Positions 1-6,763 of a DNA stretch of 64,000 bases are shown here, piece after piece. The translations under genes and the position numbers were made by a program. Source of the DNA: Savitreella phatthalungensis. Taxonomy: Eukaryota. Within the stretch, counting starts at the first letter, position 1; every line of letters starts with the position of its first letter. The stretch covers positions 1 to 64,000 of the forward strand of contig AP039708.1 of the NCBI GenBank assembly GCA_051599415.1, in the 5' to 3' direction. Under the pieces are notes generated by a model. That model was not told the DNA's origin, did no database searches, and worked only from the letters and a program-made list of their open reading frames with translations.

Positions 1-60
1 GTACTCGTTCAGTTACGTATTGCTAAGGTTAAGACTACTTTCTGCCTTTGCGAGAACAGC
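1..60 (+). other. Sequencing artefact: Oxford Nanopore ligation adapter end + native barcode flank + barcode (NB06-like)
   Basis: 1-24 GTACT(T)CGTTCAGTTACGTATTGCT is the ONT adapter end. 25-32 AAGGTTAA is the flank. 33-56 GACTACTTTCTGCCTTTGCGAGAA is the barcode as I recall NB06. 57-60 CAGC starts the CAGCACCT flank. It lies distal to the telomere. Confidence 0.93.
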
Positions 61-183
61 TAACCCTAACCCTAACCCTAACCCTAACCCTAACCCTAAC
101 CCTAACCCTAACCCTAACCCTAACCCTAACCCTAACCCTAACCCTAACCCTAACCCTAACCCTAACCCTAACCCTAACCCTAA
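61..183 (+). repeat. Telomeric repeat array (TAACCC)n, about 20.5 units; left chromosome end
   Basis: Perfect TAACCC tandem array at the contig start, C-rich strand on +. Confidence 0.98.
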
Positions 184-282: not shown

Positions 283-565
283 CCTACTGCTGGTACGACC
301 TAGTAGGTGCGAAAAATGATCGACTCGGCGACGACCTGGCGCCACCACCTAGAACCACCTAGTGCGACCTGGCACGGCCTATTACTAGTACCACCACCTG
401 GCACCACGACAACCTACTAGTACCACCACCTACTAGTACGACCTGGCACTGTAGAGTACTGCCACGAGTACTGCCACTTGGCAATACCTAGCACTGACTG
501 CGACCGAGGTCGACCTGGACCTGGTCACGTGACGGCACAAATCACGTGGAGGTGCCATTAGCGAG

Positions 566-636
566 TCATCTTATCTCATCTTATCTTCTATCTCATCTTA
601 TCTCCTATCTTATCTCATCTTATCTCCTCTCATCTT
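566..636 (+). repeat. (TCATCTTATC)n-type microsatellite; second, longer copy at 2154-2247
   Basis: Direct inspection; tandem GATAAG motifs on the minus strand. Confidence 0.85.
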
Positions 637-768
637 TGACTGGCTATATCTTCTGATCCAGATGTCGAATGATCACGAGACTAGTCTCATCATGACGCCA
701 TTGATCAACTCTATAAAAAACATTTTCACATGTACGATGGTTTTTCACTGTCTGAATTAGATTTGGTT

Positions 769-774
769 TATATA
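769..774 (+). promoter_or_regulatory. TATA element (TATATA) 30 nt upstream of the putative Pol III RNA start
   Basis: TATATA starts 30 nt before G799; same spacing in copy 2 (2421 vs G2451) although the surrounding bases differ. Confidence 0.6.
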
Positions 775-798
775 TTGTGTTTGCCACGTGCTCACAAT

Positions 799-1061
799 GC
801 AAGGCCCTTGGTCTCGTGGCACAGTGGTTTGGCCTCCACTGAGCTACTGAGTCACGAGCTTTGTGCATGGAGGGTAAATGAAGGTCTGGCAGAATTTGAA
901 CTTTGAGGTCTCAAGTTCAAATCCTGCTTGGAGCAACAATTAACTGCCAATAAGCTCTAGGCAGTCAGGGAGCAAGAGCGCTCTCAGGGGCTTTCCCTCC
1001 ATGCACGAGGTCAGAACATTTCTCTGAGTGTTCTGATACAGGGGGTTTTGCCAAATTTTTT
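799..1061 (+). ncRNA. Putative Pol III-transcribed structured ncRNA or tRNA-promoter SINE-like element, copy 1 (family not recognised)
   Basis: A box TGGCACAGTGG 817-827, B box GTTCAAATCC 915-924, T6 at 1056-1061. Closing stem 799-810/1039-1051, hairpin 813-858, 16-bp stem 859-874/995-1010, hairpins 888-928, 943-965, 968-985 and 1011-1036. Confidence 0.62.
1056..1061 (+). terminator. Oligo-T (T6) putative Pol III terminator
   Basis: TTTTTT begins 5 nt after the end of the closing stem; conserved in copy 2 (2699-2704). Confidence 0.55.
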
Positions 1062-1098
1062 CACATTCAGGCACAGAGAGATGCAGAGAAGGCAGTCA

Positions 1099-1187
1099 AA
1101 TGCATAGAATGCAGCGGAATGCAGGGAATGTAGGGGATGCAGGGGATGCAGGGAATGCAGGGAATGCAGGGAATGTAGGGAATGCAG
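1099..1187 (+). repeat. 9-bp GGGAATGCA minisatellite (shorter copy at about 2726-2797)
   Basis: Seven G3/G4 runs at 9-nt period, 1124-1180. Confidence 0.9.
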
Positions 1188-1786
1188 TTTGGTTTTGCAG
1201 TTTGGTTTTTGCAATTTGGTTTTTACAGGTTGGTTTTACAGTTTGGTTTTACAGTTTGGTTTTGCAGTTTGGTTTTACAGTTTGGTTTTACAGTTTGGTT
1301 TCGCAGTTTGGTTCTTGCAGTTTGGTTCTACAGTTTGGTTTTACAGTTTGGTTTTGCAGTTTGGTTTTGCAGTTTGGTTCTTGCAGTTTGGTTCTACAGT
1401 TTGGTTTTTGCAGTTTGGTTCTTGCAGTCTTGGATGCAGTTTGGTTTTACAGATTGGTTTCGCAGTTTGGTTCTTGCACTTTGGTTTTTACAGTTTGGTT
1501 TTACAGTTTGGTTTTTGCAGTTTGGTTTTTGCAGTTTGGTTTTTGCAGTTTGGTTCTTGCAGTCTTGGATGCAGTTTGGTTTTACAGTTTGGTTTTGCAG
1601 TTTGGTTCTTGCAGTTTGGTTTTTACAGTTTGGTTTTTACAGTTTGGTTTTGCAGTTTGGTTTTACAGTTTGGTTCACGGCTGCAGTTTGGATTTTGCAG
1701 TTTGGTTTTACAGTTTGGTTTTACAGTTTGGTTTTACAGTTTGGTTTTTACAGTTTGGTTTTGCAGTTTGGTTTTACAGTTTGGTT
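1184..1786 (+). repeat. 13-14 bp satellite (R)CAGTTTGGTTTT(T), copy 1
   Basis: Dozens of tandem variants (TTTT, TTTTT, TTCTT, TTTC); the overlapping FGF/VWF ORFs are artefacts of this repeat. Confidence 0.95.
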
Positions 1787-1788
1787 CG

Positions 1789-1849
1789 TCCCTAACTGTT
1801 GACTTACAGTTAGGGATGCCATGCAGTGTTTCATCCCTAACTTCATGGC
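1789..1849. other. Conserved inverted-repeat module containing telomere hexamers (CCCTAAC / GTTAGGG / CCCTAAC)
   Basis: TCCCTAACTGT 1789-1799 pairs with ACAGTTAGGGA 1806-1816; AGTTAGGGATG 1808-1818 pairs with CATCCCTAACT 1832-1842. Further copies start at 3220 and 4565. Confidence 0.8.
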
Positions 1850-2450
1850 TATAATCTGGCGCTGCTGAAAACAGTTTGGGATTTTTGAACGGAATATATA
1901 TAGGTGCGAAAATAGATCGACTCGGCGACGACCTAGCACCACCACCTAGTACTACCTAGCGCGACCTGGCACGGCCTATTACTAGTACCACCACCAGGCA
2001 CCACTACGACCTACTACTAGTACCACCTGCTGCTAGTACGACCTGGCACTGCAGAGTTCTGCCACCCGGCACTACCTAGCACCGACAGCGACCGCGGCCG
2101 ACCTGTACCTGGTCACGTGACTGCGAAGAACACGTGTGGGTGCCATTGGCTAGTCATCTTATCTCATCTTATCTCCTATCTTATCTTATCTCCTATCTCA
2201 TCTCATCACCTATCTCATCTCATCTTATCTTCTATCTCATCTTATCTATGCCTCTATGTGTGCGCCCCATGACATCATTGTGTGTCCACTTTGACTGGCT
2301 ATATCTTTTGATCCAGATGTCAGATGATCACAAGACTAGTCTCATCATGACGCCATTGATTGACTCTATAAAAAACATTTTCACATGTACAATGGTTTTT
2401 TATGTGAATAAGATTGGGTTTATATACTGAGCTTGCCACGTGCTTACAAT

Positions 2451-2704
2451 GCAAGGCCCTTGGTCTCGTGGCACAGTGGTTTGGCCCCCACTGAGCTACT
2501 GAGTCACGAGCTTTGTGCATGGAGGGTAGATGCAGGTCTGGCAGGGTTTGAGGTCTTGGGTTCAAATCCTGCTTGGAGCAACAATTAACTGCCAATAAGC
2601 TCTAGGCAGTCAGGGAGCAAGAGCGCTCTCAGGGGCTTTCCCTCCATGCACGAGGTCAGAACATCACTGTGTGTTCTGATACGGGGGGTTTTGCCAAATT
2701 TTTT
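2451..2704 (+). ncRNA. Putative Pol III structured ncRNA or SINE-like element, copy 2
   Basis: TATA 2421-2426, A box 2469-2479, canonical B box GGTTCAAATCC 2559-2569, T6 2699-2704; the stems of copy 1 are retained. Confidence 0.62.
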
Positions 2705-2793
2705 CACATTCAGGTACCTTGCAGAGAATGCATAGAAAGCAGCGGAATGCAGGGAATGCAGGGAATGTAGGGAATGCAGAGAATGCAGAGAAT

Positions 2794-3218
2794 GCAGTTT
2801 GGTTTTTGCAATTTGGTTTTTACAGTTTGGTTTTACAGTTTGGTTTTGCAGTTTGGTCTTACAGTTTGGTTTCGCAGTTTGGTTCTTGCAGTTTGGTTTT
2901 ACAGTTTGGTTTTTGCAGTTTGGTTTTTGCAGTTTGGTTTTTGCAGTTTGTTTTTTGCAGTTTGGTTTGCAGTTAGGTTCACGGCTACAGTTCGGGATGC
3001 AGTTAGGTTCAAATTTGTTGAGCACTGCAGTTTGGTTCTGCAGTTTGGTTTTTGCAGTTTGGTTTTTGCAGTTTGGTTTTTGCAGTTTGGTTTTTGCAGT
3101 TTGGTTTTTGCAGTTTGGTTTGCAGTTAGGTTCACCGCTGCAGTTTGGTTTTGCAGTTTGGTTCTTGCAGTTTGGTTTTTACAGTTTGGTTTTACAGTTT
3201 GGTTTTACAGTTTGGTTT
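2794..3218 (+). repeat. CAGTTTGGTTTT satellite, copy 2
   Basis: Tandem 13-14mers including CAGTTAGGTTC variants. Confidence 0.95.
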
Positions 3219-3404
3219 GTCCCTAACTGTTGGCTTACAGTTAGGGATGCCATGCAGTGTTTCATCCCTAACTTCATGGCTATAATCTGGCGCTGCTGAA
3301 AACAGTTTGGGATTTTTGAACGGAATATATATAGGTGTCTGTGCCTGTCTGTGCTCCTTGTATGCCTCATTCAACTATTTAGTCCGTGCTTTATTGACTG
3401 TGAT

Positions 3405-3590
3405 GGCTGCTACTGCTACCTCACAGACTACTTCCTCCATCATCTTCACTAATTCCAATACTGCCACTACAACAGCTACTGCTGCATTCACTGCTGCTGC
3501 CGTTACTACTGCTGTTACTACTGCTGCCACTGCTGCTGCTACTACTGCTGCTACTACCATGACCACCACTGCTGCTGCTACTGCTGCTGG
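3405..3590 (+). repeat. Degenerate (GCT/ACT)n trinucleotide low-complexity tract
   Basis: ACTGCTGCT-type repeats; translate as Ala/Thr runs. Confidence 0.75.
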
Positions 3591-3603
3591 CGGGCATACT
3601 ACA

Positions 3604-4679
3604 GATTTGTTGAGCGCTGCAGTTTGGTTCTTGCAGTTTGGTTCTTGCAGGTTGGTTTTACAGTTTGGTTTTGCAGTTGGGCGTATCTATGGACACGGCA
3701 TAATTTGCTATGGGCACGGCAGATTTTCTAATTTCACCAAAAGATCATAGCAAATTACTATGCATAACGTATTTTGATAAAAACACCAACGTTCGACGAT
3801 TGTGTGTCAGTCAACCTGATGAATGTTTTCCATGACTGAAGTACCTGACTGGATTGGTTTCACTGTTCAAAATGGCTTGGATTGCGCCTGACTGAAGTTG
3901 AGTTAGTATGTCTGTCAGGCAGGCGACAGTTTGAGGGGCGTGGCCGGCCTCTGGGATGTGTGGCCATTTCGCTTGAAGTTGCCATCTGGCTGCATTGCAT
4001 GTAGAATTCATGCTGTGCTTTCAGCATGAATGCTTTCTGAGCTTCTGTCTTGTAGCGGTACACTGTACATGTCAGCCTCAAACATTGATCAGCCCTACTA
4101 TTATTGCTGCAGTGCAATGTATCAATGTTGCTTCTCTCCAAGTGTCTTTGTGGCAAACCATGTCGAGCACATGCCAATTTTGAGTACTTGTCCTTCTTTG
4201 AGTCTTGCACCACAAGGAGGAAACTTGCAGCTTTGCAAATACAGAACATGCAGCCTTGAGCTCTGTGAGACTGTCCCAGAGGGTGGATTGTAGGCCTTCC
4301 ATGTTGTCTTTGTTGGTGTCAGTGATGGTGGACCGTAAAGTGTCAATATCTGTTATATGTCCTTATAAAATCATCCTTGAGATGGTCCTTCAATCTTTGC
4401 AATTGACTGTGCATCCGAATTCAATTACAGGAGAATTTGCTACATACACCAAATGCCGTGTCCGTGATAAAATCTGCCGTGTCCATAGATGCGCCCTTTG
4501 CAGTTTGGTTTTACAGTTTGGTCTCACAGTTTGGTCTCACAGTTTGGTTTTGCAGTTAGGTTTGTCCCTAACTGTTGACTCACAGTTAGGGATGCCATGC
4601 AGTGTTTCATCCCTGACTTCATGGCTATAATCTGGCGCCGCTGAAAACAGTTTGGTATTTTTGAACGAAATATATGTAG
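3604..4679 (+). repeat. Partial third subtelomeric unit (satellite + CCCTAAC hairpin tail) interrupted by a DNA transposon
   Basis: Satellite at 3619-3678 and 4497-4563; tail 4564-4679 matches 1788-1900. Confidence 0.85.
3679..4496 (-). mobile_element. Non-autonomous Mutator-like (MULE) DNA transposon remnant, 818 bp
   Basis: About 43-bp imperfect TIRs GGGCGYATCTATGGACACGGCA.. at 3679-3721 and 4454-4496; 9-bp TSD TTTGCAGTT at 3670-3678 and 4497-4505. Broken minus-strand frames (KAASFLLVVQDSKKDKYSKLACARHG; RWQL) resemble a FAR1-type N-terminal domain; no DDE domain seen. Confidence 0.8.
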
Positions 4680-4872
4680 AGTTGTGGTATGTATCAGTTA
4701 TTTTCGCCGTCACTGCCTAGACCGTCTCTTGTCCTCCCTCCATGCCCATCGTACTTGTTCATATCTCACCGTGTTCGTCGGTGTACTTTGTCCGTGTCCT
4801 CCTGTGTCGTCTGATTCGTGTCCGTGTCGCTTCGTCCGGCGCTCTTGGGTCCTGAGGCCGTCCTCCACAACA
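4680..4872. mobile_element. Solo LTR (about 193 bp)
   Basis: Ends (A)GTTGTGG...CCACAACA form a terminal inverted repeat; flanks TGTAG/TTTAG fit a decayed 5-bp TSD; homologous to 6565-6763. Confidence 0.72.
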
Positions 4873-5978: not shown

Positions 5979-6564
5979 CTGCCGCCATCTGGCGGTGTCA
6001 TGGCGGATTCATGTGAATTTTTCGATGTGTCTGCACCGAAGTCGTCAGGTGCGTTGTGTGTGAGACCGAGCTGACGATATGCGCAGCGCATTGTCATCAC
6101 ATTTCGAAGAAAGTGGCGAGCGAATCGCTTCGGTAAGATAATTGAGCAGCACACTGCACTGGAAATGCACTTTTCGTTCCAGCAAATGCCTCTGCAGGTC
6201 TCTATTGCCTCTACTTGTCTCGACTCGAGTCACATCCTAGTTCACTGAAGATCATGTGGAAGTTCGAACACAAACTGTTGCAACTGGTCAAACACCGAGC
6301 GAGCTTGTCTAGCGTGTGTTCAAACCGAGCACGGATATATGTCGCGGCCGGTCGATGGCCCAGGTCGATTGTATACGGTTTGTACACGACGCCGTCACTT
6401 CCGCAATCACTCGGTCTACGTATGACAAGATAGTAGCCCCGTATGGAGCTGTCAAATAGTATCGTTCTGTTCTAGGTCCTGGTGTTGGTGATATCTGGCA
6501 CGCCGTCTCCGTACGGCGTGTCGCGTCCTCTTGTACTTCCCCTACCAACCTGCCACGTCAGCAG

Positions 6565-6763
6565 GGTTGTGGTATGTATCAGATATAGCATGGTCGGTGC
6601 CATCGTCTAAGCCATCTCTCATAGTCCCTCCGTGTCTGTTCGTGCTCGTTCGTGTCTCTCCGTGTTCCTCGGTGACCTCCGTCTGTGTCCTCCTGTGTCG
6701 TCTGTCTCGTGTCCGTGTCGCTTCGTCCGTCGCTCTCGGGTCCTGCGGCCGTCCTCCGCGACA
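6565..6763. mobile_element. Diverged second LTR copy (about 199 bp)
   Basis: GTTGTGGTATGTATCAG start shared with 4681; GTGTCCTCCTGTGTCGTCTG and CGTGTCCGTGTCGCTTCGTCCG blocks shared; ends CCGCGACA. No TSD evident. Confidence 0.7.

Follow-up and report, generated by a model that had tools for sequence, protein, structure and literature searches.

The window analysed here, the first 64,000 bases of contig AP039708.1, contains two copies of an element that folds as a highly paired RNA of about 260 nt, each copy lying within a larger subtelomeric repeat unit. The explanation that we favour, with moderate confidence, is a multi-copy Pol III gene for a new small structured RNA, carried in each of these units at the chromosome end of a Taphrinales fungus, with a transcription complex that may also mark the border of the chromosome end. 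The features named in a preliminary description of this DNA all lie where that description had placed them; they are collected in Table 1 together with those of the second copy and of the surrounding repeats.

Table 1. Features of the two copies of the element and of their surroundings (positions in the window)
Feature	Positions	Strand	Remarks
Telomere repeat	60-183	-	20.7 units, reading CCCTAA on the + strand; the - strand carries the outward-running G-rich sequence
Subtelomeric repeat unit 1	304-1906	.	16-mer repeats, unique part with the element, 9-mer and 13-mer satellites, telomere-like hairpin
Subtelomeric repeat unit 2	1901-3337	.	From self-BLAST
Predicted RNA, copy 1	799-1061	+	~258-263 nt, from G799 to the U run
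TATATA, copy 1	769-774	+	-30 to -25 if +1 is 799; no listed variant inside it in the public runs
A box, copy 1	817-827	+	Full match to TRGCNNAGTGG, at +19
B-box core, copy 1	915-924	+	Within the 3′ arm of hairpin 888-928; starts 98 bases downstream of the A-box start
T6 run, copy 1	1056-1061	+	Pol III terminator-like, five bases past P1
P1	799-812/1038-1051	+	Joins the 5′ and 3′ ends; 4 pairs are G-U; RNAfold
Hairpin	813-858	+	19 bp, A-A mismatch 821/850, 5 G-U pairs; A box in the 5′ arm
Long arm	859-1010	+	16-bp stem 859-874/995-1010, 7-bp stem 881-887/988-994, then a junction
Second-junction hairpins	888-928, 943-965, 968-985	+	Junction closed by 881-887/988-994
Invariant core	929-994	+	66/66 bases identical in the two copies; 929-942 unpaired, 11-nt loop 949-959
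3′ hairpin	1011-1036	+	11 bp; tip differs among copies by small indels
Predicted RNA, copy 2	2451-2704	+	91.8% identical over the 293 bases of 769-1061
TATATA, copy 2	2421-2426	+	At -30
A box, copy 2	2469-2479	+	Full consensus match, at +19
B box, copy 2	2559-2569 (core 2560-2569)	+	Fuller GGTTC form; 91 bases after the A box
T6 run, copy 2	2699-2704	+	Five bases past the closing stem

RNAfold applied to the + strand of 799-1056 gave 97 pairs that engage 75% of the bases and agrees helix by helix with the fold drawn by hand in the preliminary description, a four-way junction followed by a second junction. That this fold should outdo shuffled controls was borne out: copy 1 has a minimum free energy of -122.3 kcal/mol compared to -82.65 (SD 4.72) for the shuffles (z -8.40), and 0 of 200 shuffled sequences folded as well. 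Copy 2 reaches -125.2 (z -7.60). When windows of 258 nt were taken every 200 bases over the 64 kb (319 positions on 2 strands), the two copies ranked first and second among the 638 (background mean -75.8, SD 13.5), and the G+C content of these top-ranked windows is only 0.50-0.52. Adding 100-base flanks on each side (461-nt context) leaves the fold unchanged. RNAalifold proposes an inner alternative with 924-934 paired to 954-964, which arises because the seven-base deletion of copy 2 misaligns hairpin 888-928; each copy folded singly prefers the three-hairpin form. A seven-pair complementarity between the junction strand 929-935 and the loop 953-959 could correspond to a tertiary loop-junction contact or to an alternative fold.

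The fold is a property of the + strand. Its - strand counterpart attains only -95.3 kcal/mol (z -5.06), a gap of 27 kcal/mol, because 18 of the 97 pairs are G-U and turn into C-A on the opposite strand. The earlier remark that the non-Watson-Crick positions are mostly G-U and favour a + strand RNA holds for both copies, with 18 G-U versus one A-C within the helices of copy 1 and 18 versus 0 in copy 2. DNA palindromes that decay by mutation would be expected to contain G-U and A-C equally often; under equal odds, at least 18 G-U in 19 has a probability of p = 4e-5. The present variation among copies is symmetric in the fullest of the public sequencing runs (X1, see below), with C>T plus A>G at 14 places and G>A plus T>C at 14. 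The arms of P1 compared as DNA, where a G-U counts as a mismatch, match at 8 of 12 positions, and the + strand folded with DNA parameters has a z of -5.51. It is this strand asymmetry, with the + strand favoured through its G-U pairs, that supports reading the element as an RNA.

Pol III-type signals frame the folded sequence. The consensus sequences used were TRGCNNAGTGG for the A box, about 10-20 bases after the start, and GTTCRANNCC for the B-box core. TATATA at -30, an A box at +19, a B box and a T6 run just after the stem joining the ends had been reported for copy 1; all were found, and they follow one another in the same order in copy 2. The A-box pattern occurs five times in the 64 kb where 0.96 would be expected, and four of these matches belong to the two copies, each of which has one on the + strand and a mirror image of it on the - strand (836-846, 2488-2498). 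The B-box core by itself is not rare (7 matches in the window versus 4.4 expected); what counts is its pairing with the A box. The box-like motifs of the - strand come from the palindromic hairpins, and there the order of the boxes is wrong. No T run inside the element exceeds T4 in either copy, and one X1 contig has T5 instead of T6 at 1056-1061. The sequence bears out what appears to be a complete set of Pol III-type signals whose order and spacing are right. The guess that this is the fission-yeast layout fits: the host is placed in the same subphylum (see below), and a TATA box at -30/-24 is regular in the promoters of S. pombe tRNA genes according to the promoter passages of PMC7279448 (citing Hamada et al. 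2001). These type-2 Pol III genes with a TATA box share with the element the A box at about +19, the downstream B box, the TATA position and the oligo-T; the element differs in being a non-tRNA sequence of 258-263 nt whose boxes are 91-98 bases apart, which exceeds the distance in ordinary tRNA genes, and both lie within long hairpins.

The start of the window is a real chromosome end with 20.7 telomere repeat units at 60-183, and copy 1 of the predicted RNA begins 616 bases from the end of this repeat. The bases ahead of it (1-59) are non-telomeric and resemble what we take to be a leftover nanopore sequencing adapter with barcode flanks; if so, the assembly would end in an untrimmed read whose start was the true end of the chromosome, and the telomere repeat would measure only about 124 bases. 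Further inward, the presence of genes for MCM2, UPF1, a GCN2-type kinase and a GH72 glucanosyltransferase shows that the host is a fungus. Its MCM2 protein shares 83-84% identity with the MCM2 of Taphrina deformans and Protomyces lactucae-debilis, compared with 69-73% for other Taphrinomycotina. By these protein identities the host is a member of the Taphrinales, and fission yeast shares its subphylum.

The repeat units are about 1.6 kb in size and each also contains a TCATC-type repeat besides the 16-mer, 9-mer and 13-mer repeats. Self-BLAST aligned 304-1663 with 1901-3218 at 79% and 1382-1906 with 2793-3337 at 86% identity. Each unit is closed by a short perfect hairpin of telomere-like motifs (CCCTAAC ... 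GTTAGGG, at 1787-1815, 3222-3250 and 4562-4590), after which another CCCTAAC follows. A telomere-like hairpin once per unit fits the account of T. deformans in the relevant section of Text S1 of PMC3648899, which gives TTAGGG telomeres and subtelomeres with interspersed telomere motifs at 'moderate density'. The satellite at 1183-1786 and 2793-3218 consists of a 13-14-mer, TGCAGTTTGGTTT, in 45 and 31 copies; since it has no stop codon in any + strand frame, the 252-codon open frame that results at 1037-1795 is spurious. Inside the 13-mer satellite, which resumes on either side, sits a MITE-like element of about 818 bp (3679-4496) with 43-nt imperfect terminal inverted repeats (3679-3721 and 4454-4496, 81% complementary). 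ACT/GCT-rich 12-15-mer repeats at 3403-3600 give rise to an ATG-started, Thr/Ala-rich ORF of 115 codons, which may be a coding sequence or simply of low complexity. Two direct repeats just inside the satellite region (4678-4872 and 6563-6763, about 1.9 kb apart and 78-85% identical) could be the ends of a decayed element or a further subtelomeric duplication. Palindromic CACGTG motifs of the E-box type are present at 524-552 and 785-790 and again at 2111-2135 and 2437-2442, such that each unit has two in the upstream conserved block and one between TATATA and the predicted RNA start; they are possible sites for a bHLH factor of the Cbf1 type.

Comparison of the two units reveals an uneven profile of identity. 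Upstream of the predicted RNA it is 93% in a block at 641-700, 85% at 701-768 and 87% at 769-798. Within the RNA it rises to 98% at 799-858, then amounts to 93% at 859-887, 71% at 888-928, the hairpin with the remodelled tip, 100% at 929-994 and 92% at 995-1056; downstream, at 1057-1100, it is 59%. With respect to the copy-1 structure, the two copies together keep 184 of 185 pair cells paired, and the positions at which they differ are loops, hairpin tips or a single side of a pair that is kept. One-sided changes stay paired at 4 pairs and two-sided changes are absent. Hairpin 888-928 has lost seven bases in copy 2, where a hairpin of 11-12 bp still forms. Covariation, to which the preliminary description had looked for confirmation, provided none, with 0 compensatory pairs from only two full sequences, one of which had served to derive the structure. 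In the window, a covariance model made from both copies (R1) recovered no third copy, only weak - strand mirror images of the two at 18-20 bits.

Further copies were sought in public sequencing runs. Eight of nine runs, from five studies, contain part of 640-1100, and four of them were compared (X1, X3, X7 and X8). X1 (label A), the fullest, may be the source of the window itself and yielded 98 contig pieces; X3 (label B) yielded 13 pieces that span all of 640-1100. X7 (label C) and X8 (label D) gave one contig each, 957-1088 at a depth of 3.6 and 826-970 at a depth of 2, with 10 of 29 bins covered in either case. Pieces of the element are thus present in three studies besides the possible source, those labelled B, C and D, with C and D weak. 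At the hairpin tip 901-905, at least four forms occur in X1, so several non-identical copies exist. Twenty variants are listed inside 799-1056, of which 4 fall on unpaired bases, 6 keep their pair (all as G-U) and 10 break it. Among the frequent ones, those at 815, 855 and 913 keep pairing (to G-U) and those at 835 and 877 are unpaired, the exception being 881 at a helix end; the pair-breaking variants are mostly single contigs. Six of nine transitions at paired sites keep the pair, which is near the neutral half. Among 40 of the 50 variants listed, none lies in 914-1012, in TATATA or in the B-box core. The pattern fits purifying selection without proving it, and the pair-breaking variants and near-neutral transitions suggest that many copies may be decaying.

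Some of these observations would also be compatible with a relic, that is a tRNA-derived or other Pol III-type sequence, once an RNA gene or a retroposon, that was captured by the repeat and is now carried along by homogenization, transcribed or not, with no function of its own. The A and B boxes are hallmarks of tRNA genes, 10 of the 16 listed variants at paired sites break the pair with no compensatory change, and the hairpin tips vary through slippage-like indels. Moreover, the kinship of the copies and gene conversion within a repeat family can imitate conservation. However, homogenization alone is insufficient to explain why the element outdoes its flanks in conservation within one and the same unit. 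The 18:1 excess of G-U over A-C is intact in both copies despite the symmetry of current variation, and both have the upstream TATA, which a retroposed copy would not have carried along. Nor is there a recognizable tRNA, even when introns and lowered thresholds are allowed, or an Rfam tRNA match at E up to 10. We consider a relic unlikely.

The expectation that the element would neither fold as a tRNA nor belong to a known family was upheld by the Rfam and ARAGORN searches. Over the whole 64 kb, Rfam produced 0 matches at the gathering score; at E up to 10, the region 600-1200 had 8 matches, the best (E 0.66) to a miRNA hairpin model and far below the cut-off. ARAGORN called 0 tRNAs in the 64 kb, and with introns and lowered thresholds it returned only inconsistent calls that differ between the two copies. 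A tRNA, with or without an intron, was accordingly rejected, there being no consistent call and no match to RF00005 at E up to 10, and the same applies to SRP RNA, RNase P/MRP, snRNAs, ribozymes, vault, Y and telomerase RNAs, for which no Rfam model matched. CCCTAA, as in a telomere template, does not occur inside 799-1061. A hairpin precursor of siRNAs or miRNAs is not supported either, since the element has no uninterrupted duplex of about 21 bp, the longest helices being the 19 bp with the A-A mismatch and the 16-bp stem. Small RNAs might nonetheless be derived from the hairpins, as genes for Dicer, Argonaute and RdRP are listed for T. deformans in Table S2 of PMC3648899, but these helices are short for dicing.

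Of the alternatives offered in the preliminary description, a new ncRNA family or a structured SINE, the first stands as far as the lack of any known family goes, the RNA gene being what we infer, and the second is disfavoured by the shared flanks and the fixed place in the repeat. Both copies in the window lie in homologous flanks, and in X1 the share of the 98 pieces that run into unlike sequence is 0.03. Such common flanks argue against scattered SINE insertions. Downstream of its terminal T6, the element gives way first to unique sequence and later to satellites, and it has no A-rich or LINE-derived tail. It resembles tRNA-derived SINEs in being multi-copy, in its tRNA-type internal promoter and in a length of a few hundred bases, yet differs from them in being non-dispersed with the same flanks, in the upstream TATA that has been kept, in ending at a terminator and in lacking a tRNA-like head. 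Its predicted fold is also far tighter than those known for the RNAs of SINEs.

Relatives outside the window were looked for in several ways. No locus in JGI metagenomes, prokaryote genomes or viral contigs contained an exact 23-base pattern taken from the invariant core. A gapped A-box/B-box pattern hit 4 metagenome loci that share only the 30-base B-box region with the unit; they were rejected as relatives because they have no R1 match, and by eye they are tRNA-like genes with long inserts. The consulted sections of the literature on Taphrina and Protomyces subtelomeres and on fungal subtelomeric Pol III hairpin RNAs, PMC3648899 and PMC4007546 included, do not describe the element.

Among known RNAs, adenovirus VA RNA I, the EBERs and the vault and Y RNAs are highly paired Pol III products whose 5′ and 3′ ends are joined by a long terminal stem with a U tail after it, and the VA and EBER genes have internal A and B boxes as does the element. 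In contrast to all of these, the element has no sequence or Rfam likeness to them, it is fungal, chromosomal and multi-copy at ends, and its product would be larger with two junctions. The S. pombe SRP RNA is about 250-260 nt long. To SRP (7SL) RNA the element bears a likeness in length, in its paired ends, in a long central stem leading to a hairpin junction and in being a predicted Pol III product; it is unlike it in having no Rfam SRP match at E up to 10 and in being multi-copy, variable and subtelomeric.

If the element is a Pol III gene, TFIIIC would bind the internal A box (817-827) and B box (915-924) and TFIIIB would be positioned on TATATA at -30 as on fission-yeast tRNA genes. Pol III would then start near G799 and stop in the T6 run at 1056-1061. 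The product would be an RNA of 258-263 nt whose 3′ end is a run of U. A 13-bp terminal stem would lock its two ends together, and three quarters of its bases would be paired around two multi-helix junctions. The helices would supply stability, and the core (929-994) would be the likely binding surface for a protein or nucleic-acid partner. The Pol III complex may in addition affect chromatin by forming a barrier that separates the chromosome end from the first genes, a role that we propose because one copy sits in every telomere-adjacent unit. One point that counts against the Pol III gene as the best reading is the location, since essential RNA genes are not usually found in subtelomeric repeats. 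A more specific version, a lineage-specific Pol III RNA for chromosome ends in which the partner of the core acts on subtelomeric chromatin or in telomere protection and the Pol III complex sets the border, seems quite unlikely to us; if true, it would mean a new family of RNAs and would connect Pol III to telomere biology in a new way.

The barrier could in principle be the whole function: the boxes would recruit TFIIIC, alone or together with Pol III, to form a barrier or tether at the chromosome end, and the RNA and its fold would be irrelevant. There is a precedent in S. pombe, where, according to the relevant parts of PMC2040200, the tDNAs of centromere 1 are heterochromatin barriers that need both TFIIIC and Pol III. 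The element likewise would be a unit with a Pol III promoter at the edge of a normally heterochromatic region. It is repeated from unit to unit in the interval that separates the telomere from the first genes, and its B-box core is free of variants among 40 of the 50 listed. The S. pombe barriers, however, are ordinary tRNA genes or bare B-box clusters, whereas the element would encode an elaborate non-tRNA fold. The boxes alone would suffice for a barrier, and a fold with a z of -8.4, the strand pattern of the G-U pairs and a terminator right after the closing stem would go unexplained. A purely chromatin-based function is therefore improbable.

We regard as decidedly improbable a folded domain of a longer Pol II lncRNA that heads away from the telomere, for example from a TATAAAA-like motif at about 710-716. 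Yeast subtelomeres do give rise to lncRNAs, and the conserved upstream block at 641-700 (93%) and the TATA-like run would be in keeping with such a transcript; against it, the A box at +19, the B box, TATATA at -30 and T6 exactly frame the folded domain, and a T6 run is no Pol II signal. Least probable of all are nested palindromes that act as DNA and never as RNA, be it as a foldback or MITE-like insertion or as cruciforms for repeat recombination or replication: the - strand and the + strand under DNA parameters also beat their shuffles and a MITE-like element with terminal inverted repeats is located nearby (3679-4496), yet the symmetric decay expected of a palindrome is contradicted by the G-U excess and by the energy difference between the strands, the fold is multi-branched and not a single foldback, and the end stem pairs only by virtue of G-U, with no terminal inverted repeat at the DNA level and no evident target-site duplication.

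Should the element be transcribed as a Pol III gene, it would define a new family of structured small RNAs in an early-diverging group of ascomycetes that includes plant pathogens, encoded in a telomere-bordering repeat and not at a single locus. Its invariant, partly single-stranded core would offer a handle for probes and pull-downs. The fission-yeast type of Pol III promoter, a TATA box plus internal boxes, would then be more widely used in the subphylum. It would also provide a concrete case of a Pol III unit at a chromosome end, whether as a barrier, as the source of an RNA with a job at the telomere, or both.
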